Assembly: GCA_031274525.1 (NCBI GenBank)
Contig: JAISQA010000077.1
Location: 1,194 to 65,193 of the forward strand
Source: Candidatus Margulisiibacteriota bacterium
GTDB lineage: Bacteria; Margulisbacteria; Termititenacia; Termititenacales; Termititenacaceae
Length of the DNA: 64,000 nt
Reading direction: 5' to 3'
Positions 7,194 through 52,319 of this stretch are shown here, one piece after another. Position 1 is the stretch's first letter. Every line of letters starts with the position of its first letter. Position numbers and translations under genes: made by a program. Under the pieces are notes generated by a model. It was not told the origin of the DNA. It saw only the letters and a list, made by a program, of their open reading frames with translations, and ran no database searches.

Positions 7194-8007
7194 TAAGTCC
7201 TCCGAAGTTTATCAGATTAAATTTATTGTAAATCATAGCGAAGAACTCCGGGTTTGTCATTAAAACGTACTCCTGCGCGGATATACCGGTGATCGCGGTC
7301 GGCGTATTATCCGCAGCGGCCAGCGGATGACACATGTACTCGGTGTTGTGCCGGGCCTGGCGCAAAATTAAGCGCAGGTGTTTCCCGGTCAGCTCCGCGG
7401 GCAGGGGCCAGAGCGCAAACACAGAAGTCAGGGCGCGGTTGGTCTGGACGCGGAGCAGTCTAGCTAGAAGACTGTTCCAGCGGCCGAAACAGAGAGAGAT
7501 AAATTTCCGCCAGAGCCGCTTGGCATCAGCGGGGTCGAACGGGTCGTATTTATTGAAAATAGTTTTTTCCAGCACCAGCCTGAGCGGGATGTTTTTCGCG
7601 CGGGCGAAGCGGGCAAATAAGGGAAATAATTGCGGCCAGTTGTGAATGTGCTGATGACTGTCCAGATGCGTCGGGGTCAGGCCGAAGTCCAGCATTTTCT
7701 GGTACTGGCGCGCCAGCTCGTCCTGAATAAATTTTTTTTTGATCTGTCCTTTTAGCAGCTGCCGTTCAAAATCGCCGCGATTTTTAAAGCAAGTCCCGGG
7801 CGGAGTCGAGGGGCTGCCCAGCGTCAGATTGAAATGCAGTCCGACGGGGATCCTGTCCCGCTTGGCCAGGTCGGCGGCGGCTTTGGAGTCCGGCAGGTCG
7901 ACCAGCAGCGTGGCCGAGGAAATGACGCCTTTTTTGTAAAGCTCCGCTATCGCTTTATTGGCGCTGGCGCTAATCCCGAAATCATCGGCGTTGATGATAA
8001 TATTCAT
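7186..8007 (-). CDS. ChbG/YdjC/HpnK-family carbohydrate deacetylase
   Basis: N-terminal NADDFGIS motif and HLDSHQHIH metal-binding motif typical of the YdjC family. It overlaps the epimerase gene by 8 nt, giving a three-gene operon with the GT4 gene. Confidence 0.7.
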   Translation of the reverse strand: MNIIINADDFGISASANKAIAELYKKGVISSATLLVDLPDSKAAADLAKRDRIPVGLHFNLTLGSPSTPPGTCFKNRGDFERQLLKGQIKKKFIQDELARQYQKMLDFGLTPTHLDSHQHIHNWPQLFPLFARFARAKNIPLRLVLEKTIFNKYDPFDPADAKRLWRKFISLCFGRWNSLLARLLRVQTNRALTSVFALWPLPAELTGKHLRLILRQARHNTEYMCHPLAAADNTPTAITGISAQEYVLMTNPEFFAMIYNKFNLINFGGLNG

Positions 8008-8906: not shown

Positions 8907-11900
8907 GTGCAGAGGAAACAGATTGCTATTGTAGATTTGCTGCAAAAAGCCGCGCGCTTTCTGGCCAATCCGTTTGAGGAGGCGGTGAATTTTGCCGGGC
9001 TGCTGCGGCTGGATATTCCGGCGGCGGACAAGAGAGCTATTCTGGGCTTGAGCCTGAAATATAAGCAGTATGTGGAAACGCCTAAACAGACGGCGGGGCC
9101 GACGCAGTTAGCGCCGCGGCTGACGGAGCAGGAAAAAGAGGCCTATTATTTAGCTAATAAACAGCGCCAAACTGCGGCGGAAACCGCGCGGTACCGGAAG
9201 CTGCTGCGGGAAATTGCCCCGCTGCATGACCCGCTCCAGTATCTGGCTAAAGCGCAGGCCGCGGACTTTTCCGGTCTGGACGAATACGGCGCGGCGCTGG
9301 TGCGGCAGTTGATAGCATCCCGGCAGGCCATAGCGGCGCTGGATCAAAAACAAACCCGGAAGCAGGCTATAGTTTTTGTCTTTAGCGTGTACCGGGATAT
9401 TAACCGGCTGAAGAGGCCGACAGAAACTTTTACCGGAGAAAATTTTCTGGAAGTGAAGTGCCGGCAGCTGGCTTATCTTTTCCATGACATGCGCTATTTT
9501 GACTGGCGGCTTCTGATCGCGGAGGATGAAGCCTGCGCGGAGCCGGACAAAAGCACCGTCGAGGCGATCAACCGCCTGCTGGACAATCCCTTTCACTTGA
9601 GCCGTTTTGCTCCTAAAGTGCAGACATTTTTTCCGGAGGATTTGCTGCCGGAGCTGGAGCAGTATCAGAAACGTTCCGGAATTTTTAAGAGTATTTTTGA
9701 CGCGGCTGAGCCCCGGGAGCGGGCCAGACTTTTCACCGAAGCCAGTCATAAAGGCGGCATGATCCATTTGCTTTTGCGCAAAGCTCTGACTTACCGGCCG
9801 GCAGCCGTTGTTTATACGGACAGCGACACTTCGCATGATCTGGGGGTCAGCGGTTTGCTGCTAAAGGAATTGTACTCCGGCCGGGCCGACGCGGTGATCG
9901 CTTCCCGGCGTGTCCCCGGCGCGGTGGTAGCCAATAAATCCAGAGAACGCGAGCTTTATTCCGCCGGTTATCACCTGCTGGCGGAAACTTTATTTGGTCT
10001 GGGTATTAAAGACACGCAGTCCGGTTTAAAGGCGCTGCGCCCGCAGGCTGTGGAGACGGTACAGTCCCGGCTAACGGAGCTGGGCATGAGTTTTGAGGTA
10101 GAGCTACTGAAGCTGCTGAAAAAAGACGGCTGGACGATCGAAGAAATACCGGCAGTCTGGCGGGACTCCCCCTATGAATCCAAATCGTCCGATCAGGCAC
10201 AGGCGATGGCCGCAGGCCTGCTGCGTGTTTATAGAGAAATTTACCGCCCGGAGACAACGGCTGAATTGCCGGTTGATTTGCCGGCGCGGCTGCAGGCCGA
10301 GCCGGAATATCCGGCCCTGCGCCGGCTGGCGGAAGATCCGGAATTGACCGCTTTTACCAGAAACAGCTTCCGGTTATTTTCCGCGGTGCAGGTGAAAGAC
10401 TTCCGGGATTTTCTGCGGCAGGCCCAGCTGTTCATTGAGCGGCTGGCCTACAATCACGACGCGATCACGCAGGCCAGTCTGGAAGAGCTGCTGGCCGCGG
10501 GACGCCGCTGTTTCGCTATTTTACGCCGGCGCAAATTGTTCGGTTTTCTGGCCGGTAATTATCCTGACCTGGGGCCGGTGCTGGAATTACTCCGCAAAGA
10601 CCGTAAATATCTGAAAATTATTTTTCCCCTGTTTTTTGGCCGCAATATTATCAGCGCTTTGCTGGGCGTGGACGGCGCGGCAGCGCTACAGCGGAAGGAA
10701 ACCCTGTCCGGCTGGCTGGCTCATTATGCGGCGGATATTCAGGCCGTCCGCAGCTTCAAACCGGCGCCGCTGGTCAGGCAGGAATATACTCCCCGCCAGT
10801 TAGAGCGCATAGCCGCTGCGGCGCTTTCCCTGCGGAATACCCTGCCCGGACGGGAGAGACCGCTCCAGATCGGGCTGGCGCTTTTGCATAATCGTAAAAT
10901 AGATAAAACCGCGCTGGAGATCCTGCGCACGCAGGTGCAGGATCTGAGCCGTTACATTCAAGATCTGCCCCAGCTACAGTTTGAGCTGCTCATCGCCGGC
11001 GCCGATAAACACCGGCTGACCCCGGCCGAGGAGCAGAGCCATCTAAAAAGCCTGAACACAGCGCAGATCCGGGTGTCTTATCTGCCGGTCAGCGACGATT
11101 TTGAAAAAGGCAAATTTATCCGTTATACCTGGAATGTGCTGGACCACCAGCGTACCCTATCCGCCACGGAACGGGGTAACGCACAGTATTATGCTCCGGA
11201 TCTGCTGGCTTTTATGGATTATTCTTACAAGATCAGCATTCTGGAAACGCTGCCCATGCTGGCCTGGGTTATGGAAAATTACCGCAATCCCGAAGACGCG
11301 GTGCTCATCGGCTCCCGCCGGCTGGACTTGAGTGAAGTTCTGCATAAATCGCAGGCGCTGGAACTGCGCAGCATGGCCCTGAATATACTGGTCAAAAGTT
11401 TATTTCCCAAACTGCACGGCGTGGAGGACACCCAGACCGGCCTGAAAATAGTCGGGCGGAATGTCTGGCATAGAGTGGATGCAACACCATGGTCGGCTGA
11501 CGGCTACGGCTGGGAAATAGAGCTGCTCAACAAAATAGCGGTCATTTATGACCGGGATAAAGAATTTAAGGAACGGGTGGACAGGCTGGCGGCCCTGCCG
11601 GCCAAACATGAAAAGTTGCTCAAGAAGCTGCTGAACGAATCATTCTGGACAGCGGAAAATCCCGGCAGGGCTGGCCGGGACGCGCTGGCGCAGAGCGTAG
11701 CGCGGTATAAAAAAATTATCCGGGATTTGCAGAAAGAAACTTTCTGGACAACGCAGAATAATATGCCCGCGGTGGATGCGCTGCTGGGCCAGCTGTATTC
11801 GGCCGCGCAGGACTACGACCGCATTATTCAAGAGCTGCTCGAGGCGCTTGACCCGGCAGTCCACGGGCCGGCCCTCAACGATTTGTTTCAGGAAACCTCC

Positions 11901-14618
11901 TGGGCCGCGGAAACCTGGTACCTGATCGCCAAAATAAAAAATAACAGCGCTTTACCGGAAGTCATCAAAGAAATGCCGGTGGCTTTTGATGACAATACCA
12001 GCCAGCTGAATATTACCTCCAGCGAGCAAGTGATCTGGAATGTGCTGGAGGAAATGCTCAAAATTCTGGCGCAGACCGCGGATTATACCTACTATGACCG
12101 GAGTAATGAACTGCGCTTTATCGCCGGCGGAGCCGACGGCATGGTGTTTGAGTACCGGAACAAAGTGGTCAAAATACCTAACGAAAACTTTGATGTGGAT
12201 TTTTATGATGTGCTGAAGAATCTGCTCCTGCCCGGCCAAAAAATCATGCAGCGGCACGAATACGCTCAGCGTTTGGTCGAACATACGCTGATCGATAAAC
12301 TGACGGCTCAGCCGGCGCTGGACAGATTGATCCCGCATCTGCGCGCCTGGCCGGAAGCCAATAGTTTTATTCTGCGGCTGATTGCTCTGCTGGAAAATAA
12401 AGATTTTAAATCTTCCGGCTATCCGCTGGCTTTTGCCCGCGGACAGGGGTTGATCATTCCTATGTCCCGGCAGGAAGAACCTTTTCAGGCCGTTTATCGA
12501 GGCCGGACTTATCACTTTACCCGGGAAGATAATATTCTGGTCATGGCCAAGGCCGAAGTGCTGAGGAACAGACTGCGCGAGATTATTATTAAGAACGATC
12601 TGCCCGGCTTCCGATCCCTGCTCAAAGATGTGACGGATTTGATGCGCAGGCTGTGGAGGCGCGGTTTGTTCGATATGGACACCAATATTATCGCGGATCT
12701 GGGCTATTACAAAGGGAAGCTGTACCTGCTGGATCCCGGGGAGATTATCGACAATCCGGGTCTGGATATTTTGCAACATTCAAAAGAATATCTTACCCGC
12801 CGCACAGACTACATAGAATTGCGCGGCCTGCTGTCCGGGACTGCGCAGGCCAAAATAATGCTGGGGGAATACCGCAGTCAGATGTACGGCTTGTTCGATT
12901 ATATGCTTGCCGATCTGGAACAGGGCGGCAAGTATTTTAATTCAGATAAGGGTGATTTTCACCTGCAAAATGTAGCCATTATTCAGGAGGAATATACTCC
13001 GGTTACGGATTACCGCGGAATTAAACAGCATTATCTGTTTCTCTCCAGAGCCGGAGTGAATAAAAGATACACGCCTTTTCGGGAGCATCTGCCCCTGATC
13101 AAGGCTCAGCCGCTGGCGGACATCGCGTATCTTTCCAATCCCGGCGACGCGCAGGTGAAGCAGGTTCTGGATTATGAGGCTCTGCAAAAACCCTTTAAAG
13201 GAAATGTTTTGTACGCGGAGCGGGGCGGCCAGGGCTTTCGGGCAGGTTTATTGAGCCTGGCTGCCGGCGGCAAAGAATATATTGCTTTCAACGGCAGGCC
13301 GTTGATCAAATGGGTCATGGGCAGCAATGCGGCGCTGGTCAGAGAGCTGCACAGTCCCGACACGGCGGATCCGCTGCTGATTATCGCTTCTATAGATAAT
13401 TATATGGATTACCGTCAGGAAGATATTGACCGCATAAATCAGTATTTTGCCCTGCCGGAAGCGCCGGGCGCCTTTTTTTATGATCTGCCGGCTTACAGCC
13501 ACGCCGAAAGAATGCCGGAGACTCTGGGCGCAATGGCGCATTATTTCAAGACCTCGAAAGTTTTTTGGCGGGATTATAGATATTTCATAGACAGCATTCC
13601 TTTTATAGCCGGTTTTGCCCGGCGTAAAAATAATCTGTCCGAGACCATCTTAAAAGCCGCTCTGACTAACTGGCGGGCTTTTTATGGCTCCCCGGAGCAG
13701 GCCAGGCAGGACGGGGGGGGGGGGGGTATGCCTTTTGCCACCCAGACAGCGGCCCTGCTGAAACGTTTTATTTTGTATGCTTCCAATCAAAAAAGAGGCA
13801 TCAAAGCCCCGTACACGCTCATTTTCAGACAGTCTTTTCTCCAGGATTTACGGGAAAGCATCGGGCCTAAAATACCGGATTATGCCGGACACGAGCTTAC
13901 CTGGTTCAATCTGCTGTGCGCCTGGAAATATGATCCGGCCCTATGGAGCATGCTCAAGCCCCGGCTGCTGAGCGCCGCCGTCTGGCAGGATATTTATGAG
14001 ACGATGCGCAGGCTGGCCGTCAAACATCATATTGATCTGTCCGATCATCAGCAGAATAAGCTCCGGGTTTTTTACGGCGACTGGGCGGCTCTGGATAATC
14101 CTTTTTATGATATTGTGAAATTTTTCAAACGCAACAGCGCCAGGCTCGGAAACACGCCCATTTATGTGGAAAAAAGATTTTTGGCGCCGCGCAGCAGCGA
14201 AAATGAGCAGCGCCGGGAAAACCTGTTTACGCCCGCTTACTATGCCAGAATAATTGAAAATTGTGAAAACAATGATGTGGTTATTGTAGGCAATCCGGGA
14301 TACATTAAAGGCCGGATTAAAATTACGGCGCAGGATTTCCGTTTGCAGCAGTCCCAGCGCAAAACCCTCCTGTACGAAGTCAGCCTGCCGCCGGGCTATG
14401 TCATCGAGGTGCCGAAAAATCATATGCTGGTGCAGTTAACCGATCCGGATAAAACGCGCCATTATTATTCGATGACCCTGCGCCCGTTATCCCGCACGGA
14501 TCTCGCTAAAGAAATGGTTTACCGTTATGAGCTGGCGGAAAACAGCACTACCTATACGCCCCGGAAATACCAGCCCTACGAAGAATTTTTTAACGAACGC
14601 TTCCGGAGCCAGCGCTAA
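8907..14618 (+). CDS. giant (1903 aa) multidomain protein with two GT2 (GT-A fold) glycosyltransferase modules, a protein-kinase-like motif set and about 700 aa of unassigned C-terminal sequence
   Basis: GTG start with GAGAGGG Shine-Dalgarno. First GT2 module, around nt 9350-10200: IVFVFSVYRD..LLIAEDEACAEPDKST..VVYTDSDTSHD..IKDTQSGLKAL. Second, degenerate GT2 module, around nt 11000-11550: ends with VEDTQTGLKIV. Kinase-like motifs, around nt 12110-12750: Gly-loop-like IAGGADGMVFEYRNKVVKIP, later DMDTNIIADLGYY..LLDPGE resembling HxD..N/DFG. No transmembrane segment is evident. The recognisable motifs are on this strand, so the antisense ORFs in the track are rejected. Confidence 0.7.
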   Translation: MQRKQIAIVDLLQKAARFLANPFEEAVNFAGLLRLDIPAADKRAILGLSLKYKQYVETPKQTAGPTQLAPRLTEQEKEAYYLANKQRQTAAETARYRKLLREIAPLHDPLQYLAKAQAADFSGLDEYGAALVRQLIASRQAIAALDQKQTRKQAIVFVFSVYRDINRLKRPTETFTGENFLEVKCRQLAYLFHDMRYFDWRLLIAEDEACAEPDKSTVEAINRLLDNPFHLSRFAPKVQTFFPEDLLPELEQYQKRSGIFKSIFDAAEPRERARLFTEASHKGGMIHLLLRKALTYRPAAVVYTDSDTSHDLGVSGLLLKELYSGRADAVIASRRVPGAVVANKSRERELYSAGYHLLAETLFGLGIKDTQSGLKALRPQAVETVQSRLTELGMSFEVELLKLLKKDGWTIEEIPAVWRDSPYESKSSDQAQAMAAGLLRVYREIYRPETTAELPVDLPARLQAEPEYPALRRLAEDPELTAFTRNSFRLFSAVQVKDFRDFLRQAQLFIERLAYNHDAITQASLEELLAAGRRCFAILRRRKLFGFLAGNYPDLGPVLELLRKDRKYLKIIFPLFFGRNIISALLGVDGAAALQRKETLSGWLAHYAADIQAVRSFKPAPLVRQEYTPRQLERIAAAALSLRNTLPGRERPLQIGLALLHNRKIDKTALEILRTQVQDLSRYIQDLPQLQFELLIAGADKHRLTPAEEQSHLKSLNTAQIRVSYLPVSDDFEKGKFIRYTWNVLDHQRTLSATERGNAQYYAPDLLAFMDYSYKISILETLPMLAWVMENYRNPEDAVLIGSRRLDLSEVLHKSQALELRSMALNILVKSLFPKLHGVEDTQTGLKIVGRNVWHRVDATPWSADGYGWEIELLNKIAVIYDRDKEFKERVDRLAALPAKHEKLLKKLLNESFWTAENPGRAGRDALAQSVARYKKIIRDLQKETFWTTQNNMPAVDALLGQLYSAAQDYDRIIQELLEALDPAVHGPALNDLFQETSWAAETWYLIAKIKNNSALPEVIKEMPVAFDDNTSQLNITSSEQVIWNVLEEMLKILAQTADYTYYDRSNELRFIAGGADGMVFEYRNKVVKIPNENFDVDFYDVLKNLLLPGQKIMQRHEYAQRLVEHTLIDKLTAQPALDRLIPHLRAWPEANSFILRLIALLENKDFKSSGYPLAFARGQGLIIPMSRQEEPFQAVYRGRTYHFTREDNILVMAKAEVLRNRLREIIIKNDLPGFRSLLKDVTDLMRRLWRRGLFDMDTNIIADLGYYKGKLYLLDPGEIIDNPGLDILQHSKEYLTRRTDYIELRGLLSGTAQAKIMLGEYRSQMYGLFDYMLADLEQGGKYFNSDKGDFHLQNVAIIQEEYTPVTDYRGIKQHYLFLSRAGVNKRYTPFREHLPLIKAQPLADIAYLSNPGDAQVKQVLDYEALQKPFKGNVLYAERGGQGFRAGLLSLAAGGKEYIAFNGRPLIKWVMGSNAALVRELHSPDTADPLLIIASIDNYMDYRQEDIDRINQYFALPEAPGAFFYDLPAYSHAERMPETLGAMAHYFKTSKVFWRDYRYFIDSIPFIAGFARRKNNLSETILKAALTNWRAFYGSPEQARQDGGGGGMPFATQTAALLKRFILYASNQKRGIKAPYTLIFRQSFLQDLRESIGPKIPDYAGHELTWFNLLCAWKYDPALWSMLKPRLLSAAVWQDIYETMRRLAVKHHIDLSDHQQNKLRVFYGDWAALDNPFYDIVKFFKRNSARLGNTPIYVEKRFLAPRSSENEQRRENLFTPAYYARIIENCENNDVVIVGNPGYIKGRIKITAQDFRLQQSQRKTLLYEVSLPPGYVIEVPKNHMLVQLTDPDKTRHYYSMTLRPLSRTDLAKEMVYRYELAENSTTYTPRKYQPYEEFFNERFRSQR
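13713..13726 (+). repeat. G14 homopolymeric tract inside the giant CDS (encodes DGGGGGM)
   Basis: Direct count of 14 consecutive G at 13713-13726. It is in frame as sequenced. Confidence 0.9.
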
Positions 14619-14723: not shown

Positions 14724-14915
14724 ATGAAAACACTGGATTGTGCCTGCCCGAATACCGACTGCGCAGATCACGGCGAATGTTCGGCCTGCGTTGCCAAACA
14801 CAGAGCCGCAGACAGCCTGACTTATTGTTTTTTTCCGAACAATGACGGCGACAAAAGTTTAGAAAATTTTTATCATCATTTAGAAAAACGTTTTACAAAG
14901 GAGACCGCAGAATGA
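14724..14915 (+). CDS. small cysteine-rich protein (CxCPx3Cx2HGxCx2C motif; putative metal-binding 'zf-like' domain)
   Basis: MKTLDCACPNTDCADHGECSACVAKH.. with 63 aa from the internal ATG. Its stop TGA overlaps the efp ATG (ATGA), which implies translational coupling. The start is uncertain and the ORF extends upstream to 14637. Confidence 0.4.
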   Translation: MKTLDCACPNTDCADHGECSACVAKHRAADSLTYCFFPNNDGDKSLENFYHHLEKRFTKETAE

Positions 14916-15478
14916 AAGAAGCTATCGACTGCAAACCCGGGCAGATTATCAAAAAAGACGGACAGCTCTTTGTCGTGATGAGCTGGTACCCGCACAAAAT
15001 CGGCGACCGCGGCGGCATCGTGGTGGATATGAAGCTCAAAAATCTGGACACCGGAAATATTTCCATGGTGCAGCCCCGCTCTCAGGACAAATTTGACGAT
15101 GTGGTGCTGGAACGCAAACAGGTGCAGTATTCCTATCAAGACGGCGAGATGTACGTGTTTATGGACAGGGCAACCTTTGACCAGATCTCCATCAATAAAG
15201 ATTTGATCGGCGATAATTTAGGTTTTTTAAGAGAAAACATGGAGCTGGATATTTTTTTCCACGAAGGCCGGGCTGTCTCTGTCGTATTCCCGACTTTTGT
15301 CGAAATGGAGATCAGCTATACCGAGAATGTGGCGCGCGGCGACACCTCCGGCAAAGTGATGAAGAAGGCCCAGCTGGAAAACTCCGGCTACGAGATAGAC
15401 GTGCCCAGCTTTTGCAATATCGGCGACAAAATAAAGATCGACACGCGCACGCAGGAGTACGTCGAAAGAGTAAAATAA
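14912..15478 (+). CDS. efp: elongation factor P
   Basis: Full-length similarity to EF-P, including the conserved C-terminal RGDTSGKVMKKAQLENSG...IDTRTQEYVERVK. The loop sequence HKIGDRGG replaces the common KPGKG motif. Confidence 0.9.
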   Translation: MKEAIDCKPGQIIKKDGQLFVVMSWYPHKIGDRGGIVVDMKLKNLDTGNISMVQPRSQDKFDDVVLERKQVQYSYQDGEMYVFMDRATFDQISINKDLIGDNLGFLRENMELDIFFHEGRAVSVVFPTFVEMEISYTENVARGDTSGKVMKKAQLENSGYEIDVPSFCNIGDKIKIDTRTQEYVERVK

Positions 15479-15707
15479 GCGGTTTAATCAGCGTCCAGCT
15501 TGTCAGAAACCGCCGCAGTTGCTATACTTTTTGCCTGTTTTTGCGGGCTTAGCTAACGGCGCTACGCTTGTGAAATTTGACGCACTTCACTGTCGCTTGC
15601 GACCGAGCCTGTATACCTATCAGGCGAGGAAGTCCTAGTGCGCAAAGGCGCACGGAGGTGAAGTTCAGGGCAGTTGGCAGTCTGTGTAGAATATGTGCTT
15701 CGTTTCT

Positions 15708-15783
15708 GCGGGCTTAGCTCAGTTGGTAGAGCGCGACCTTGCCAAGGTCGAGGTCGTCGGTTCGAGCCCGATAGCCCGCTCCA
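15708..15783 (+). tRNA. tRNA-Gly (anticodon GCC)
   Basis: Cloverleaf with 7-bp acceptor stem GCGGGCT/AGCCCGC, D-loop AGTTGGTAGAGC, anticodon stem-loop CGACC-TTGCCAA-GGTCG, T-arm GTCGG-TTCGAGC-CCGAT and encoded CCA. It is close to E. coli tRNA-Gly(GCC). Confidence 0.9.
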
Positions 15784-15918
15784 AATCACAAATAACGTTC
15801 ATAATTTAAAAAACAGTCTGTACAATTAGGCCGCCACAAACACTTTGCATAGCCTTAATGGAACATAAGCAAAATGTTTTCCCAACATTGATAATTTAAT
15901 GCTAAAATTATTTTATAT

Positions 15919-18900
15919 ATGGACAAAGCCGCCGCTAAACAAAGTATAGCCGAACTGGTCAGAAGATTTGGCGAAAACATAGCTTCCTATAAAAACGGTG
16001 TGTATAACGAAACTCAAACTAGAAGAGAATTTATCGACCCGTTCTTTGAAGCACTGGGCTGGGATGTGGATAATAAACAGGGCCTGGCGGAAGCCTACAA
16101 AGAAGTAATCCACGAATATAAAATAGATAATGTCAAACAGGATTTTCGCCAGTCACCGGATTATTGTTTTACTATCTACGGGCAGGAAAAATTTTTTGTC
16201 GAGGCCAAGAAACCCAGCGTAAATATCAAACAGGATGTCGCTCCAGCCTATCAGGTGAGAAGTTATGCGTGGAGCGCCGGACTGCCTATCTCTATTGTTA
16301 CCGATTTTGAGGAATTTGCGGTATATGACTGTGTGCCAAAACCCAATGCCAGAGACAAAGTGGAAACGGCGAGAATTGAATACCTGACTTTTAGAGAATA
16401 TATCGATAAATTCGATTTTCTCTGGGACACCTTCTCCAAAGAGCGGGTCTTGCAGGGCAGTTTTGATAAATATGTTGCCGCAGATAAAGGCAATCGCGGC
16501 AAAGAAACTGTCGGCAGGGAATTTCTAAAACTTATTGAGGAATGGCGCAGAAGCTTGGCCAATAACATCGCCGCTAATAATGACCTGTCCGATGAGGAGC
16601 TGAATTATGCTGTTCAGCAGACTATCGACAGGATAATTTTTTTGATTATCTGCGAAGATAGAAAAATTGAACCAGCCAATAGGTTAAAAGAATTAGCCGA
16701 AACCCCCAATATCTATAAAAATCTTTTCCGGCTTTTTAGCGAGGCAGACGAAAAATATAATTCCGGTCTGTTCGATTTCCGCAAAGACACTATTTCTGCC
16801 AGAATTGTTATTGATGATAAAAAATTAAAAACTCTGCTGGACGATTTATATAATAGCCCGTATCAGTTTTCGCGGATACCTGTTGAAATACTGGGCAGTG
16901 TGTACGAGCAATTTTTGGGTAAAGTTATCCGCAAAACCAAGACTGCGGCGGTCATTGACGATAAGCCGGAAGTAAAAGTCGCCGGCGGTGTTTTTTACAC
17001 GCCGCAATATGTGGTGAACTACATTGTCAGAAATACTGTTGGCACTGTTATCAGCGGCAAAACTCCGGCGGAAATAAGCAGGATAAAAATAGTTGACCCG
17101 GCCTGCGGCAGCGGCTCTTTTCTGATCGGCGCGTATAAATATCTGCTGGACTATCACCAAAAATATTATCTGGACAATCCGAAAAAAAACAGTCCGTTGA
17201 CCCCGGCCGGAGAACTGACCACAGCGGAAAAGAAAAGGATTTTGCTGAACAATCTCTACGGCGTGGACATCGACGCGCAGGCGGTGGAAGTAACCAAACT
17301 GAGTTTGTTATTGCAGGCTCTGGACGGCGAGACAGAGGCATCCATTAACACCCAATTATCTTTGCTCAAAGAACGGGTTTTGCCCACGCTGGACAATAAC
17401 ATCAAGTGCGGAAATTCGCTGGTCTCCAACGAGGGAACACTTTTTACAGTGGATAATTCGGTGAAGCCATTCGATTGGAAAATAAATTTTCCGGCAGTTT
17501 TCGCGCAGGCCGACCGCCAATGCGGCCGGCACGCCATCGCGGGCAGAGAATGTCCCGCTCGGCAGGGCGGCTTTGATATTGTCATCGGCAATCCGCCGTA
17601 TGTCAAAGAATACACAGCCAGAACCGCTTTTGAGCCGGTGAAAAATTCACATCTGGCCAGATATTATCAGGGCAAAATGGATTTATGGTATTTCTTTGTC
17701 TGCTGGGGATTGGATATTCTGAAAGAAAAAGGCCTCTTGAGTTTTATCGCGCCGAGCAACTGGATAACCAATGCCGGAGCTTCGATATTGCGGAATAAAG
17801 TTCTAACTGAAACAGAAATACAGAGATATTTTGATTTTAATGATTATAAAGTCTTTGAAAATGCTGGTATTCAGACAATGATATTCTGTTTGCAAAAGAA
17901 AACACCGCGCAGACAATATGCTTTTACATACAATAAGGTTACAGATAAAAAAATCGATGAGACTGCGTTAAAAAATGTGCTTATGGGCAGTGAAAAAAAT
18001 CCGGCTATTGAACAAGTGAAAATAAGAGTCCAGCCGGAAATAATGAAAGATAGACTGATTGCTTTTGTTGATGCAAGTATTGATGAAATATTAGAGAAAA
18101 TCATTAAAGCGAGTAATTATTTACTTACTGAAAAAAATGTCGCGCAAGGTATTGTTTGCCCACAAGATTTTGTTATAAAGAAACACTTAGAAGAATTGAA
18201 AAATTCAAGCATAAAAGAAAAAGATGGTGTTTTTATAATATCTTCTGAAGAGCTTCGAAAGCTTAAATTATCAAGCGCAGAAAGAAAAATTATTAAGCCA
18301 TATTATACTACTGAACAATTACACAACTATTATGGTGATGACAAAAACATATCGTGGGTGATTTATTCAGATATGAATGTAAGAAAGAATATTAAAGATT
18401 ATCCTAATATAAAAGCTCATCTTGATAAATATAAAAAGATTATAACTTCTGATTTTGCGCCTTATGGCTTGCACAGAGCAAGAGAACAGGCGTTTTTTGA
18501 GGGTAAAAAAATAATCTCTTTGCGTAAGACTGCCCGACCTTGTTTTACTTATACGGATTTTCCCTGTTATGTTTCGCAAACCTATTTTTCTATCAAACCA
18601 CAGGATATAAACTTGAAATATCTAACAGGCTTGCTTAACTCCTCGCTGGTTAATTTCTGGCTTTATCACAAAGGCAAAAAACAGGGTGAACAGTTGCAGG
18701 TCGACAAAGAGCCTCTGCTACAAATACCTATCGTAAAAACTGATGATAAGCAGGTAGAAAACACCATAATTAAATGCGTGGATGAGATTATCGCATTGAA
18801 AAAACAGCTGCAGGGTGTTTCGCTGGCAAATCAGAAAGAGCAGATAGAAAATAGGATTAAGTTTTTGGAGAATAGGATTGATGAGGTGGTTTTCAAGTTA

Positions 18901-18942
18901 TATGGATTAGTGGATGATGATATAAAAATTGTTAATAAATGA
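15919..18942 (+). CDS. type IIG (MmeI-like) restriction-modification enzyme: N-terminal PD-(D/E)xK endonuclease fused to gamma-class N6-adenine DNA methyltransferase and target-recognition domain
   Basis: Endonuclease motif: SPDYCFTIYGQEKFFVEAKKP (D..E.K). MTase motif I: IVDPACGSGSFL. Motif IV: IGNPPY. Length of 1007 aa and domain order match the MmeI/Eco57I-type single-chain enzymes. Confidence 0.85.
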   Translation: MDKAAAKQSIAELVRRFGENIASYKNGVYNETQTRREFIDPFFEALGWDVDNKQGLAEAYKEVIHEYKIDNVKQDFRQSPDYCFTIYGQEKFFVEAKKPSVNIKQDVAPAYQVRSYAWSAGLPISIVTDFEEFAVYDCVPKPNARDKVETARIEYLTFREYIDKFDFLWDTFSKERVLQGSFDKYVAADKGNRGKETVGREFLKLIEEWRRSLANNIAANNDLSDEELNYAVQQTIDRIIFLIICEDRKIEPANRLKELAETPNIYKNLFRLFSEADEKYNSGLFDFRKDTISARIVIDDKKLKTLLDDLYNSPYQFSRIPVEILGSVYEQFLGKVIRKTKTAAVIDDKPEVKVAGGVFYTPQYVVNYIVRNTVGTVISGKTPAEISRIKIVDPACGSGSFLIGAYKYLLDYHQKYYLDNPKKNSPLTPAGELTTAEKKRILLNNLYGVDIDAQAVEVTKLSLLLQALDGETEASINTQLSLLKERVLPTLDNNIKCGNSLVSNEGTLFTVDNSVKPFDWKINFPAVFAQADRQCGRHAIAGRECPARQGGFDIVIGNPPYVKEYTARTAFEPVKNSHLARYYQGKMDLWYFFVCWGLDILKEKGLLSFIAPSNWITNAGASILRNKVLTETEIQRYFDFNDYKVFENAGIQTMIFCLQKKTPRRQYAFTYNKVTDKKIDETALKNVLMGSEKNPAIEQVKIRVQPEIMKDRLIAFVDASIDEILEKIIKASNYLLTEKNVAQGIVCPQDFVIKKHLEELKNSSIKEKDGVFIISSEELRKLKLSSAERKIIKPYYTTEQLHNYYGDDKNISWVIYSDMNVRKNIKDYPNIKAHLDKYKKIITSDFAPYGLHRAREQAFFEGKKIISLRKTARPCFTYTDFPCYVSQTYFSIKPQDINLKYLTGLLNSSLVNFWLYHKGKKQGEQLQVDKEPLLQIPIVKTDDKQVENTIIKCVDEIIALKKQLQGVSLANQKEQIENRIKFLENRIDEVVFKLYGLVDDDIKIVNK

Positions 18943-19472
18943 AGATGCGAAAAATTAAGAAATTTTTAAATAACCAATGGACAATAGGTATTGGTACTGG
19001 GCTTACAGTATCTTTTATCATCTTGATAATTAACTCGGTAATACAAAGAATAAGCATACTGCAAAGCATATATAGTATTTTGTCATTGATTATTAAGTTT
19101 GTTTGGTGTGTATTAACATTTGGCATTCCAGTATGGCTTTTAATTATAGTGGGTTTAACATTGATACTAATACTAAAAATTATCCCAGAGCCTCAAGAAC
19201 AATGGGAAAAATATACTCTTGGGTATTATAAAAACTGGCTTTTTGAATGGAGTTACGTTGAGGATGCGTTTGGTCAAACGAGGATTAATAACTTGCGACC
19301 TGTTTGTACCAAGTGTCGATGTGATTTATCAACAAATTATCATGAGCTCTATTGTCCTAAATGTTCTAATAAATACTATATACTAGAATCGAATACATTA
19401 AGTGATTTGGAAAAAGTTATTATTGGAAATCTAAAAACCGGAGAATATAAATTAATAGATAAAAAGGAGTGA
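18939..19472 (+). CDS. small membrane protein (3 predicted TM helices) with C-terminal CxxC...CxxC zinc-ribbon
   Basis: Start ATG overlaps the RM stop codon (ATGA). Hydrophobic segments: IGIGTGLTVSFIILIINSVI, ILSLIIKFVWCVLTFGIPVWLLIIVGLTLILILKII. C-terminal CTKCRC...CPKC. Confidence 0.5.
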   Translation: MKMRKIKKFLNNQWTIGIGTGLTVSFIILIINSVIQRISILQSIYSILSLIIKFVWCVLTFGIPVWLLIIVGLTLILILKIIPEPQEQWEKYTLGYYKNWLFEWSYVEDAFGQTRINNLRPVCTKCRCDLSTNYHELYCPKCSNKYYILESNTLSDLEKVIIGNLKTGEYKLIDKKE

Positions 19473-19479
19473 TTTTAGT

Positions 19480-20502
19480 ATGTCTAAGAAAATACCAATA
19501 ATTGGCTACACTCACTTCTTCCAAGACATTAAACAGCGTATTAAATCCGCTCAATATGAAGCCTTAAAATCTGTAAATAAAGAGATGATTCGACTGTACT
19601 GGGACATTGGTAAAAAAATTGTAGATAGTCAGCAAAAACACGGCTGGGGAAAATCGATTGTGGAATCTTTGGCTAAAGATTTACAAGCTGAATTTTCTGG
19701 TATTTCTGGTTTTTCAGCAGATAATTTGTGGCGTATGCGGAAATTCTATCTGAATTATAAAAATAAGCCAAAACTTGCACCATTGGTGCAAGAAATTGCC
19801 TGGGCGCATAACATTGTTATCCTAGAGAAATGCAAAGACGATCTAGCTAGAGAATTTTATATCCGTATGACAAAGAAGTTTGGCTGGACGAAAAATGTAC
19901 TTATTCATCAGATTGAGAATCAGAGTTATGAGAAAACTTTGTTAAATCAAACAAATTTTAGTAAGACCTTACCAGCTAAGATAAAAGGACAGGCACAACT
20001 TGCTGTCCGTGATGAATATACTTTTGACTTTCTGGAATTATCAGATGAACACAGAGAAAAAGATCTTGAACGAGCAATGATAGCCAAAGTAAATCAATTT
20101 CTGATCGAAATGGGTGGTGCCTTTGCCTTCATGGGTAATCAATATCGATTAGAAATAGACGGTGAAGAATATTTTATAGATTTATTATTGTATCATCGCC
20201 GATTGAAATGTTTAGTGGCAATAGAATTAAAAATCGGCAAATTTTTACCGGAATATGTCGGGAAGATGCAGTTTTATCTCTCGGCATTAGATAATGTTAT
20301 TAAAGAAAAAACCGAAAATCCGTCTATCGGAATAATCTTATGCAAAGAGAAAAATCGCACTATTGTTGAATATGCGCTAAAAAATAGCAGAAAACCTATT
20401 GCCGTGGCAAATTATCGAATAACATCAACCCTGCCCAAAGAATTACGCAAAGAACTTCCGGCGCCGGATCAAATCAGACAGATTTTAGAAAAGATGCAAT
20501 AA
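19480..20502 (+). CDS. DUF1016/YhcG-family PD-(D/E)xK nuclease
   Basis: C-terminal YFIDLLLYHRRLKCLVAIELKIGKFLPEYVGKMQFYLSALD matches the YhcG/DUF1016 nuclease core (D..ELK). The N-terminal helical domain is typical of the family. Confidence 0.75.
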   Translation: MSKKIPIIGYTHFFQDIKQRIKSAQYEALKSVNKEMIRLYWDIGKKIVDSQQKHGWGKSIVESLAKDLQAEFSGISGFSADNLWRMRKFYLNYKNKPKLAPLVQEIAWAHNIVILEKCKDDLAREFYIRMTKKFGWTKNVLIHQIENQSYEKTLLNQTNFSKTLPAKIKGQAQLAVRDEYTFDFLELSDEHREKDLERAMIAKVNQFLIEMGGAFAFMGNQYRLEIDGEEYFIDLLLYHRRLKCLVAIELKIGKFLPEYVGKMQFYLSALDNVIKEKTENPSIGIILCKEKNRTIVEYALKNSRKPIAVANYRITSTLPKELRKELPAPDQIRQILEKMQ

Positions 20503-20521
20503 TTTATAAGAGGATAATTCA

Positions 20522-21688
20522 ATGGACAAAGTATTATTATATTATCGGCAATATAAAGATGCACCAGAATATATTTTAGCCGAGTATATTTCCACAAGAA
20601 AAATAAAGATAAGTTTTTATAAAAGAAGTCCGTGGTATTTCGAATATGAAGATGAGCAGGATTATAAAACGATGGATTATTCCTGCACATTTAAGAATAA
20701 AGATGCTACAAAATTTATAAGCCTGTTTACCAAGAATAAAAACCCGCAAGAGTTTTTACAAAGGCTCAAAGCAAAGTTTGCCAAAAGTACTTCACTGGAA
20801 AATATCTTAGAGTTTGCAGATAAACATAAGATAAATTATAAACTTTATGATAATTACTACCCGGAATGGCCAGAAAATATATTTCCATTAGATTATAGAT
20901 ATAAAAAACTCTATGACGAAAAAGGTCAATTTGTTATTCCAGAATTATACGAACCGCCTCAAAATGGTATCAGAAAACTCTTCGATTCTCGTGGAAACTT
21001 ATTTCTAGAAGCCAATTATGTACAAGGCAAGAAAAATGGTTTGTGTACTATATATGAGAATAATAAGATTAAGAAAGAGCGTTATTATGTAGACGATTTA
21101 TTGAGTGGTGTCTATAAAGAATATCATTCAAACGGTAAAGTCAAAATTGAGATGCTTTATACAAATGGTAATCGTGATGGTTTCGCTAAAGAGTACCATC
21201 CAAATGGTCGTATAAAACTGGATTCTTTTTTCAAAGATGATTTACAGGAATGTGTTTCAAACGAATACTATGACAATGGGAAATTAAAACTGGAATCAAC
21301 CTGGGCACGAGATAAAAGCGAAGGCGTAGTAATCACCTACGATATAAATGGAAATATTGAAAGTAAACTGCCTCGCAAGCACGGAAAATTAGACGGTGTA
21401 ATAAGAGATTATTATCCCAATGGTAAATTAAAGTGGGTAGAGGATTATAAAAAAGGACAAAGACACGGTAAGTCTATTAAGTATTATAAATCTGGTAAAA
21501 TAGCGTGTATACAGCATTGGCGTAATGACAAGAAGCGTAATAGCCTCGGCTATTACCAAAATGGAAATGTTTATTATAAATTTTTATTTGATAAAAACGG
21601 CAAAAGACACGGCACATCAAAAACCTATCATAAAAGCGGTAAAATACGAACAATAACAATATACAAAAATGGTAAAGTTGATGATTAG
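20522..21688 (+). CDS. MORN-variant (YwqK-family) repeat protein with a 150-aa unassigned N-terminal domain
   Basis: About 10 tandem repeats of the form Y..NGK.K.E..Y..GK..G....Y (e.g. YYPNGKLKWVEDYKKGQRHGKSIKYYKSGK). Confidence 0.65.
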   Translation: MDKVLLYYRQYKDAPEYILAEYISTRKIKISFYKRSPWYFEYEDEQDYKTMDYSCTFKNKDATKFISLFTKNKNPQEFLQRLKAKFAKSTSLENILEFADKHKINYKLYDNYYPEWPENIFPLDYRYKKLYDEKGQFVIPELYEPPQNGIRKLFDSRGNLFLEANYVQGKKNGLCTIYENNKIKKERYYVDDLLSGVYKEYHSNGKVKIEMLYTNGNRDGFAKEYHPNGRIKLDSFFKDDLQECVSNEYYDNGKLKLESTWARDKSEGVVITYDINGNIESKLPRKHGKLDGVIRDYYPNGKLKWVEDYKKGQRHGKSIKYYKSGKIACIQHWRNDKKRNSLGYYQNGNVYYKFLFDKNGKRHGTSKTYHKSGKIRTITIYKNGKVDD

Positions 21689-21711
21689 ATTTCAAATAGG
21701 AAATATAAATA

Positions 21712-22626
21712 ATGGCATTATTTAAGATAAATAATTTAAGCGTCGAGAAACTATCTGCCAGCCGGCCTGATCTAGAGCGTAGTTTACAGAAGCTCTTTGA
21801 AAACAATTTAGAAGAAATCCTAAATATTATTTTTCTAGCGCACGAATATACAACGAGTTTTGGCGGTAGGATTGATACTCTTGGCATAGATAAGAACGGA
21901 GCCCCTTGTATAATTGAATATAAAAAAACTAAAGATGATAATGTTATTAATCAAGGGTTGTCTTACTTGCGCTGGTTGCTTGACCATAAAGCTGATTTCG
22001 AAAAACTATGTAAAACTCATAAAGTAAATACTGATATTGATTGGGATTCACCGCGAGTTATTTGTATTGCTGAAAGTTATAATAAATTTGATATTGATAC
22101 AGCAGATATTTTACCGATTAAGATTGAATTGTTATGTTATAAACTTTATGAGGATAATATCTTATATATTGAGGCAGAAAATCATCAGAAAGTAAAAATT
22201 TCTACATCTGGCATAACAAAAAAAGCTAAACAATATAAAGAACAGGCCGAACATTTACAAAAGATTTATTCTATTGATGATCACCTCATTGGGATTAATA
22301 AGCAAACTAAAGAGTTATTTTATAACTTACGTGAAAAAATTATCTCGCTTGATAAAAACATTGTTGAGGAGGCAAAAGCTAAATATATTGCCTATAAAAC
22401 AGCAACAAATTTCACGGATATTGTGATTCAACGATCCGGATTGAAAATATTTATAAATATCAAAAGCGGACAACTTATTGATCCACAAGGATTGGCGCGT
22501 GATTTAACAAAACCAAAACATATCGGACATTGGGGGAATGGTGATTATGAAACAACTCTTGAAAAAGAAAATGAACTTGAAACAGTTTTTGCTTTAATCA
22601 AACAAGGATATGATTTAAATAAATAG
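21712..22626 (+). CDS. NucS/DUF91-like PD-(D/E)xK nuclease-fold protein with a C-terminal domain shared with the Bro-N protein at 33690..34319 (DUF5655-like)
   Basis: GRIDTLGIDKNGAPCIIEYKK..VINQGLSYLRWL fits the RecB-like core of NucS/DUF91. The C-terminal KAKYIAYKTATNF...HIGHWGNGDYETTLE aligns with the C-terminus of the 33690..34319 protein. Confidence 0.5.
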   Translation: MALFKINNLSVEKLSASRPDLERSLQKLFENNLEEILNIIFLAHEYTTSFGGRIDTLGIDKNGAPCIIEYKKTKDDNVINQGLSYLRWLLDHKADFEKLCKTHKVNTDIDWDSPRVICIAESYNKFDIDTADILPIKIELLCYKLYEDNILYIEAENHQKVKISTSGITKKAKQYKEQAEHLQKIYSIDDHLIGINKQTKELFYNLREKIISLDKNIVEEAKAKYIAYKTATNFTDIVIQRSGLKIFINIKSGQLIDPQGLARDLTKPKHIGHWGNGDYETTLEKENELETVFALIKQGYDLNK

Positions 22627-50965: not shown

Positions 50966-52078
50966 CTAGGGCAGATACTGCTGGGGGTTGACAGTCTCGC
51001 CATTTAGCCGCACTTCAAAATGCAGATGCGGGCCGGTGGCATAGCCGGTGGCTCCTACATTGCCGATAGTCTGGCCTTTGTTGACTTTTTCGCCTTTTTT
51101 GACCTCTTGTTTGGACATATGGGCGTACAGCGTGGAATAACCGCGGCCGTGATCCAGAATCACACAACGGCCGTAGCCGCCCCACCAGTCAGAATAAGTC
51201 ACCACTCCGGAATCCGCGGCCTTGATCGGCGTGCCGTGCGCCACGCCGATATCCAGCCCGGTGTGCATCTTGGCTACTTTGAAGATCGGATGCACTCGCT
51301 TGCCGTACAGCGAGGTGATGACCCCGCGCACCGGCCAGATATATTTACCGGAGCCGCGCGCTTCCGCCCGGGGATTTTCCAGGATCATTTTCTTGAGCAT
51401 CGCTTCGACTTCCTGAGAATTTTTCAGCAGGCTGTCCGCTTCTCTTTCGTATTTGAGACGCTCGGCGCGCAGCGAGGCATGCAGCTGCTCCTGACGCCTG
51501 GTCCTCTGCTCATAGAGCTGTTTTTGCTGTTCAATGCTTTTTTTGGTCGATTCGATAATATTTTTCTGATATTCCAGATTTTCTTTTTTACGCGCGATGT
51601 CCTGCTTGATCGAACGCACCTGTTCCAGATTTTGCAGATCGCGCCCCAGCAGCCGACGGTAATAATAGGTATTCTCTACCAGACTGGAAAAAGAACGGTT
51701 GGTCAGCAGCAAAGTCAGCCAGCCCAGATCCTGAGTCTTGTACATTTCCCGGATACGCAGCCGGCTCAGGCTCAAACGCCGCCGGTACTCCGCGTCATTG
51801 CGGTTTAATTCTTCGCTGGTCTGCTGCAGCACCTGCGTATGCTGGGTTAATTTTTGCTGATTGTATTTCAGCTCATTCTGGACTTTGTTCAGACTGCGGC
51901 TGAGCAGGGTCAGGTCGCGCAGCGAAGCGTTTTCTTTGACCTTAGTCTGCTGGAGCAGGCGCTGATTGCGCTGAAGCTCTGACTGCAAACGCTGCAGTTC
52001 TTTTTGTTTGTCGGCGATGCTGTCCGCCGGCGCCAGCGCCAGAAGCAGACTGAACAGCAATAAAACCCGGAACAGCAA
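50966..52078 (-). CDS. M23-family peptidase with N-terminal coiled coil (EnvC/murein hydrolase activator-like), secreted
   Basis: C-terminal M23 motifs (HTGLDIG..G.PI.A...G.V; H.H). The long coiled coil is rich in Q/L/R. I take the start at TTG 52078 (MLFRVLLLFSLLLALAPA signal peptide), which has a GGGGGGG Shine-Dalgarno 6 nt upstream. The ORF-track start at 52165 runs through the att-like repeat. Confidence 0.7.
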   Translation of the reverse strand: MLFRVLLLFSLLLALAPADSIADKQKELQRLQSELQRNQRLLQQTKVKENASLRDLTLLSRSLNKVQNELKYNQQKLTQHTQVLQQTSEELNRNDAEYRRRLSLSRLRIREMYKTQDLGWLTLLLTNRSFSSLVENTYYYRRLLGRDLQNLEQVRSIKQDIARKKENLEYQKNIIESTKKSIEQQKQLYEQRTRRQEQLHASLRAERLKYEREADSLLKNSQEVEAMLKKMILENPRAEARGSGKYIWPVRGVITSLYGKRVHPIFKVAKMHTGLDIGVAHGTPIKAADSGVVTYSDWWGGYGRCVILDHGRGYSTLYAHMSKQEVKKGEKVNKGQTIGNVGATGYATGPHLHFEVRLNGETVNPQQYLP

Positions 52079-52128
52079 ACTAATCCCCCCCTGTATGCTT
52101 CCGCAGGCCGGACCCGCCGGCTGTCCAT

Positions 52129-52157
52129 AGCACACTAAGTGCCGAAGGCCGGACTCG
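52129..52157. repeat. 29-bp direct repeat copy 1, identical to the 3' 18 nt of tRNA-Leu plus 11 nt of flank (att-like)
   Basis: AGCACACTAAGTGCCGAAGGCCGGACTCG matches 52320..52348 perfectly. Confidence 0.85.
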
Positions 52158-52319
52158 CCGCTCATCTCGCCTGCCGGACGGCAGGCTTCGCTCGCGGGCG
52201 GGTCTCGCTGACTTTGCCTGTAGCAAAGCCAGCTCCGACTGTTCGAGTCCAGCCGCAGACAGCCACAGGCTGCCTGCTTCAGGTACTATTCTTCAAAACC
52301 ACAGGTTAAATCTTAACAC

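Follow-up and report, generated by a model that had tools for sequence, protein, structure and literature searches.

Why should a bacterial gene encoding a protein of 1903 amino acids carry, far into its reading frame, an uninterrupted run of 14 guanines? The question is raised by a 64,000-nt stretch of DNA (the window, as the whole of it is called here: positions 1,194 to 65,193 of contig JAISQA010000077.1, assembly GCA_031274525.1) from a Candidatus Margulisiibacteriota bacterium related to Termititenax, the described Margulisbacteria genus of termite-gut symbionts. The answer toward which we lean, with some reserve, is that the tract (G14) was born by slippage and works as a translational phase-variation, or contingency, switch in this giant gene; it is probably an addition to the classical homopolymer class of phase-variable loci. 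Tract and gene are located as follows:

13713 to 13726, plus strand: G14 homopolymer, which together with T13727 encodes Gly1603-Gly1607 (four GGG codons and one GGT)

8907 to 14618, plus strand: giant open reading frame (ORF) with a GTG start, 1903 amino acids, identical to NCBI MDR1998095.1

Letters and translation bear out the earlier note on this DNA in placing an in-frame G14 here: the homopolymer, c-GGGGGGGGGGGGGG-t, is read in frame with the ORF as GAC (13710-13712), four GGG codons, GGT (13725-13727) and ATG (13728-13730), that is, as D1602, G1603-G1607 and M1608 (DGGGGGM). The note set the tract in a 60% GC genome, which is wrong (the GC content is 51.5% for the window and 53% for the giant gene), and judged it longer than chance would produce, which is right. 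All remaining G runs in the window are of 6 nt or fewer and all C runs of 7 or fewer; G14 is the sole G/C run of at least 9. A first-order Markov model predicts 9e-4 G/C runs of at least 14 nt in the window, and the observed count of five overlapping G10 matches was reached in none of 100 dinucleotide-preserving shuffles. G14 is real and far beyond chance. (The second-longest G/C run of the window, a C7 at 52085-52091 on the plus strand that is G7 in gene sense, is situated close to the start (5' end) of a Peptidase_M23 gene at 50966-52165 on the minus strand and is below the thresholds for phase variation.)

The codons of the tract carry a hint of its origin. GGG is a minor codon in this gene, accounting for 13 of the 89 glycine codons outside the tract, and GGC is preferred. 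Four GGG codons in a row, in a gene that seldom uses them, indicate mutational slippage of a G run as the source of the four GGG and the GGT, rather than selection for a glycine linker. Whatever its purpose, a homopolymer as long as this is hypermutable for mechanical reasons, and frameshifted subpopulations are accordingly to be expected: G14 is a genuine hypermutable tract.

The consequences of a change in length were worked out by rebuilding the gene in silico with 11 to 17 G. They are most readily followed on the layout of the protein, for which the evidence is given further on, and on the positions of the stop codons that come into play:

9771 to 10247, plus strand: GT2-like region 1, amino acids 289-447, with DSD at amino acids 305-307 and ASRR...DTQSGLK motifs

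11274 to 11531, plus strand: GT2-like region 2, amino acids ~790-875, an internal duplicate of region 1 (IGSRR...DTQTGLK)

12009 to 12941, plus strand: protein-kinase-like domain, amino acids 1035-1345, assigned by invariant residues, AlphaFold (AF2) model and Foldseek

13089 to 14615, plus strand: conserved C-terminal module, amino acids 1395-1903, with a GGxGxR...K motif (amino acids 1440-1456)

13759 to 13761, plus strand: TGA, reached at G13 or G16

13868 to 13870, plus strand: TAA, reached at G15 or G12

13728 to 14618, plus strand: segment lost on a +1 or -1 slip (M1608-R1903, 296 amino acids), which holds invariant and near-invariant residues of the family

Tracts of 11, 14 and 17 G stay in frame and yield 1902, 1903 and 1904 amino acids, respectively. 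G13 and G16 yield 1617 and 1618 amino acids, ending at the TGA 11 codons past the glycine run; G12 and G15 yield 1653 and 1654, ending at the TAA 47 codons past it. At its present length the tract thus leaves the frame open, and one G more or fewer leads to a premature stop; the earlier note had anticipated this truncation, and only its figure of 300 lost amino acids needs correction, to 296. The invariant or near-invariant positions in the lost segment include G1631, K1633, P1635, W1666, K1674, D1676, W1680, R1720, W1726 and H1839, so a slip should, on this pattern of conservation, inactivate the C-terminal module. The switch that we propose would then operate in the following way: 1) At G14 (or G11 or G17) the tract would be read through as five glycines, tolerated in a disordered linker, and the protein would be made at full length. 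2) Slipped-strand mispairing at replication would add or remove one G and shift the frame. 3) Translation would stop 11 codons (G13) or 47 codons (G15) farther on and the last 296 residues would be lost; these amount to one half of the conserved module at the C-terminus, and both GT2-like regions and the kinase-like domain would be kept.

Might the OFF state be not a truncated protein but a divided one? ATG 13728 lies in the original frame, one base beyond the tract (13727-13730), the upstream portion of the G run precedes it by 8-14 nt, and genes of the window have GGAGG-like ribosome-binding sites, so that one can imagine the G run as a Shine-Dalgarno-like element and the OFF state as amino acids 1-1617 plus a separate 296-residue C-terminal piece. 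We give this domain-splitting switch scarcely any credence. The methionine is not conserved (Phe in the nearest orthologue, P0002, and Leu or Phe in others), the cut would run through a single predicted module, the predicted 296-residue restart product is absent from a collection of 15 billion proteins, and the idea is pure conjecture.

If the tract is to serve as a switch, its penta-glycine should do no harm when the gene is ON. The glycines lie in this segment:

13689 to 13736, plus strand: length-variable loop of low predicted confidence with Gly5, amino acids 1595-1610 (residues 201-216 of the AF2 model, predicted local distance difference test score, pLDDT, <50)

The loop is one of two segments with pLDDT <50 in the model of the C-terminal module. 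The family segment aligned to amino acids 1583-1630 is unconserved and varies from 46 to 70 residues in length; in distant homologues it is rich in serine, glycine and threonine (SSSQGGGTTSG and RGSSSGGGT, for example). Five glycines in a loop of this kind should, as far as the model and the alignment can tell, be tolerated. The same properties invite a different explanation of the tract: that it is a neutral by-product, an unstable slippage-expanded poly-Gly insertion in a tolerant linker, with frameshifted cells being purged and switching left unexploited. The linker is disordered, length-variable and S/G-rich, and low-complexity insertions are common in the homologues. Still, every slip costs the cell a protein of 1903 amino acids, and purifying selection should under these circumstances interrupt a pure G14 with synonymous changes, GGC being the preferred codon.

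The orthologues, too, bear on the choice. The sole close full-length relative is P0002 (LBJ25_05210), from a second Margulisbacteria metagenome-assembled genome (MAG), a protein of 1903 amino acids that is 66-68% identical. At the site of the window's tract P0002 has RQSSSLPSFPFA, with no glycine and no repeat: SSSLPS stands there rather than a glycine stretch in mixed codons, so that the orthologue pattern which the earlier note named as a refutation is not the one observed. Its locus (L001) nevertheless contains exactly one long homopolymer, and this is a G14 in the same gene: at L001 6741-6754, encoding amino acids 598-602, ~1000 codons upstream of the site of the window's tract (31% versus 84% into the gene). 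Compared with both the window and Termititenax, it stands in L001 as a clean insertion of 15 nt (CAGCGG|AAGGAA in the window, CAGCGC-G14-T-AACGAA in L001), and the linker that holds it is likewise unconserved and varies in length throughout the family, the counterpart of amino acids 575-612 being 28 to 129 residues long. In this orthologue G15 leads to an immediate TAA and G13 to a 627-amino acid product (the TAA directly follows the tract, at L001 6755-6757). The comparison of downstream frames that the earlier note proposed finds them conserved between the window and P0002, at 55-71% amino acid identity; with both tracts in frame, the assembled state is taken to be ON in both genomes. In a third relative, Ca. 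Termititenax spirochaetophilus (P0004, locus L003), the gene is free of G/C runs of 6 nt or longer and encodes ordinary residues at the two sites; the tracts are accordingly recent, lineage-specific gains.

How often does the family do this? Among 44 retrieved proteins, glycine runs of at least 5 occur only in the two MAG orthologues and in the JGI copy of the window protein, P0003, whose sole difference is V in place of M at residue 1. The window and five further loci (~133 kb in all) contain just two G/C runs of at least 9, the two G14 tracts, and both are in the giant gene; dropped at random, one per contig, they would both land there with a probability of ~0.089 x 0.277 = 0.025. The homologues accordingly display independent presence and absence of a repeat, not a conserved run of amino acids. 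The two tracts share the context C-G14-TA, and an inserted cassette common to both was considered and rejected: no similarity of the flanks extends beyond 1-2 nt. Both are compatible, as sequences, with growth from a ...C GGT A... glycine codon. The independent G14 in P0002 argues for recurrent birth of slippage tracts in the giant gene and is hard to square with neutral, chance expansion, which would have had to generate two pure G14 tracts in one gene and none elsewhere in the 133 kb.

Could both tracts be artefacts of sequencing or assembly, of the kind that two-color Illumina chemistry generates as poly-G, or mis-assembled homopolymers that are truly much shorter or absent? The two contigs with tracts come from metagenome assemblies of the JGI type, both tracts measure exactly 14 and have identical immediate flanks, and errors in the exact length of a long G run are common; a pure G run in a short-read metagenome assembly does resemble the Illumina artefact. 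That artefact, however, is found at the ends of reads and contigs, whereas these runs are internal and 14 nt long, with collinear coding sequence that is conserved in the orthologue on both sides and with the frame preserved. Random errors would not be expected to strike the same gene in two independent assemblies, in frame both times, and the lack of flank similarity argues against a shared adapter as it does against a cassette. The earlier note, which placed the artefact on an equal footing with a biological origin, gave it too much weight; we regard it as quite improbable.

More orthologues were sought with modest returns. A metagenome scan with the tract-flanking motifs yielded no relatives; a similar scan with family motifs yielded only one locus (L005), which is 25% identical and tract-free; and a genome scan yielded only a 4.5-kb contig (L002) that ends at about amino acid 490, short of both tract sites.

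(A technical note on two of the loci: The first 1300 nt of the Termititenax contig L003, BGZM01000003.1, contain an inverted junction, amino acids 423-699 being encoded on the minus strand, from 834 to 16, and those from 692 onward on the plus strand, starting at 776. As a result, the first ~70 residues of the annotated 1124-amino acid "putative glycosyl transferase" are out of frame. A DNA-inversion switch was entertained for this contig, which has no G tract, and set aside: a chimera of assembly or amplification is probably the better explanation. In L004, ENA ERZ21862061 contig_19, 33% GC, a distant member of the family is broken over three frames at short T/A runs between nt 7650 and 8040, with one break in the region of an LNGGTGSRL nucleotidyltransferase-like motif and with Fic, RhuM and MmeI-type genes in the flanks. 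A natural split at the tract linker was considered here as well; indel error or decay is judged more likely, and the breaks are unrelated to poly-G.)

What kind of protein would be switched? The NCBI record says only [quoted passage not shown], and a Pfam scan of the full 1903 amino acids yields nothing above threshold. The family is rare and unannotated: an exhaustive HMMER search with amino acids 704-1903 against 1.84 billion representative proteins returned only 42 clusters at 50% identity, most of them with proteins of 1300-2700 amino acids. An alignment of 20 members drawn from these clusters (A3) underlies the family comparisons, and a profile search with another alignment (A4) gave no matches. 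In most members two GT2-like regions are followed by the kinase-like domain and then by the conserved C-terminal module; additional N-terminal regions are present in some, and P0013 has, by eye, an apparent OTU-type motif.

The case for GT2 is made at the level of the profile. When amino acids 1-500 are scanned, the score for PF00535 is 12.9 bits against a cut-off of 23.3, which leaves the region outside that family by Pfam's own standard; 4 of the 20 aligned family members do match PF00535, with E down to 2e-5. GT2-like region 1 weakly matches the models of AglJ (NCBIfam, E=1e-3) and PpgS, its DxD motif is YTDSDTSHDL (amino acids 303-312), and the profile of the 20-member alignment matches a solved GT2 enzyme, dolichol-phosphate mannose synthase (DPMS, 5mlz), with E=3e-5. 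The two GT2-like regions are 36% identical over amino acids ~320-404 and ~790-875 (BLASTP, E=5e-9). As in the GT2 polyprenyl-phosphate sugar synthases (DPM1/DPMS, AglJ, PpgS), the DSD motif and the C-terminal half of the GT-A fold can be recognized; unlike them, the match is sub-threshold, the region is duplicated, and it is embedded in a giant protein that has a kinase-like domain and no evident membrane anchor. The earlier note's allusion to surface or modification genes finds an echo in this weak GT2 similarity, which does not reach the Pfam threshold that would make it an assignment. (The most hydrophobic segment of the giant protein is IIFPLFFGRNIISALLGVD, amino acids 571-589, nt ~10617-10673, with a Kyte-Doolittle value of 1.53, just under the typical transmembrane cut-off; it is conserved family-wide and lies directly upstream of the site of the orthologue's G14.)

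Amino acids 1035-1345 are, on the model, a protein-kinase-like fold. G1075, A1076, K1089, D1256-x-D1258-x-N1260 and D1276-P-G-E are invariant in the family and answer to the Gly-rich loop, the lysine, the D-x-D-x-N catalytic loop and the metal-binding DxG motif of a bilobal kinase; the AF2 model has a pLDDT of 82.5 and a predicted template modeling score (pTM) of 0.81, and all of the top 50 Foldseek matches in the PDB have this fold (RIO, AceK, GCN2, PKA), with probabilities of up to 1.0 but E values of only ~1e-3 and TM-scores of 0.3-0.4. The C-terminal module (model pLDDT 77.8, pTM 0.75) is distinguished by its GGxGxR...K motif, which is near-invariant across the family and reminiscent of sugar nucleotidyltransferases; Foldseek comparison of the module with the PDB gives no significant match. 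The best match that is biologically plausible is FKP, the bifunctional L-fucokinase/GDP-fucose pyrophosphorylase (9iit), at E=0.94 and a TM-score of 0.30, a lead only: FKP unites a kinase and a sugar nucleotidyltransferase in one chain, and a GGxGxR motif is present. The kinase of FKP belongs to the GHMP superfamily, whereas the domain of the giant protein is protein-kinase-like. Taken together, the motifs and profiles point to a giant enzyme in which two GT2-like regions are joined to a kinase-like domain and a C-terminal module, and which probably has a role in glycan chemistry.

How does the tract compare with established switches? The poly-G tracts of the Neisseria lgt glycosyltransferase genes are 9-15 long, the homology groups of phase-variable genes in Neisseria mix tract-bearing with tract-free members, and the threshold for phase-variable poly-G/C applied here, at least 9, is that of PhasomeIt (PMC5953494). 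The intragenic G14 exceeds this threshold. It resembles lgtA/C/D/G and the pgl genes as an in-frame intragenic poly-G tract of 9-15 nt in a glycosyltransferase-type gene, with a premature stop resulting from a +1 or -1 slip, and the giant gene's orthologues, like the Neisseria groups, include both tract-bearing and tract-free homologues. The phase-variable enzymes of Neisseria are small and have single domains, their switching has been demonstrated by experiment, and tract position is shared between alleles; here, in contrast, the protein has four modules and 1903 amino acids, the tract lies at 84% of the gene while that of the orthologue lies at 31%, and the switching is what we infer. In Campylobacter jejuni, another host-associated bacterium, poly-G contingency loci are found in genes for capsule, lipooligosaccharide and flagellar glycosylation. 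Campylobacter has ~30 such tracts per genome, a low GC content and no mismatch repair; the window, unlike it, has one tract in 64 kb.

The preservation of an uninterrupted tract in a 5.7-kb gene and the orthologue's possession of its own are what favor a selected contingency switch over neutral linker expansion: tract length would vary in the population, and the variation would be put to use. Several considerations weigh on the other side: 1) Each genome is represented by one contig. Clusters at 90% identity contain no G11 or G17 variants, and an exact look-up in the collection of 15 billion proteins finds none of the products predicted at G13 and G15 for either orthologue, though this negative is uninformative. 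2) Only three to four orthologues are at hand, and recurrent gain rests on n=2. 3) There is no G/C tract of at least 9 in 84 kb of Margulisbacteria sequence outside the giant gene, and thus no sign there of a genome-wide phase-variable set. 4) The position of the tract, 84% into the gene, makes OFF a truncation and not a null. 5) The giant protein has no signal peptide and no clear membrane segment, and its tie to surface structures is a weak one, its GT2 match being below the Pfam threshold. The neutral by-product draws strength from some of these same facts (both assemblies are in the ON frame, and variant lengths are found neither in the 90% clusters nor in the protein collection) and from the third relative, Termititenax, which does without a tract; it is nevertheless, in our judgment, somewhat unlikely. 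A more elaborate proposal can also be put forward: that sister lineages have independently placed G14 at different linkers, so that slippage sheds different domains (after GT2-like region 1 in one lineage, within the C-terminal module in the other), a "modular" phase variation in which the G run might also act as a ribosome-binding site that splits the protein. This is a doubtful speculation.

In the papers searched, phase variation is nowhere reported for Margulisbacteria or Termititenax. If read data confirm that the length of the window's tract is heterogeneous, classical poly-G phase variation will have been extended to Margulisbacteria, an uncultured candidate phylum, and attached to a rare and uncharacterized family of giant proteins of the GT2/kinase-like type. 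In that event, the orthologue's independent tract would be a natural example of second-order selection for mutability, and the giant protein would be marked as one whose variation benefits the cells, probably as an interaction factor related to glycans. Should the tract prove to be uniformly G14, one would be left with a mere curiosity of linker evolution.

The surroundings of the gene are those of an ordinary bacterial chromosome: the window encodes RNase P RNA, two tRNAs, RelA/SpoT, RNase Y and elongation factor P (EF-P). The divergent upstream neighbors of the giant gene are concerned with sugar metabolism (YdjC, an NAD-epimerase and a GT4 glycosyltransferase). Immediately downstream, at 14912-15783, are the genes for EF-P and tRNA-Gly(GCC), an adjacency that tempts one to connect them with Gly5. 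It is judged to be coincidental, since EF-P rescues ribosomes that stall at consecutive prolines and GGG is not among the codons read by tRNA-Gly(GCC). Directly beyond the tRNA gene, of which no repeat of at least 14 nt exists in the window, the GC content drops to 33-45% (~52% elsewhere) over positions 15708-22626. This low-GC segment encodes a type IIG restriction-modification enzyme (Eco57I/MmeI-like, 15919-18942), a 177-amino acid ORF, a YhcG/DUF1016 PDDEXK nuclease, a MORN-repeat protein and a DUF5655 protein, and looks like a horizontally acquired defense island.

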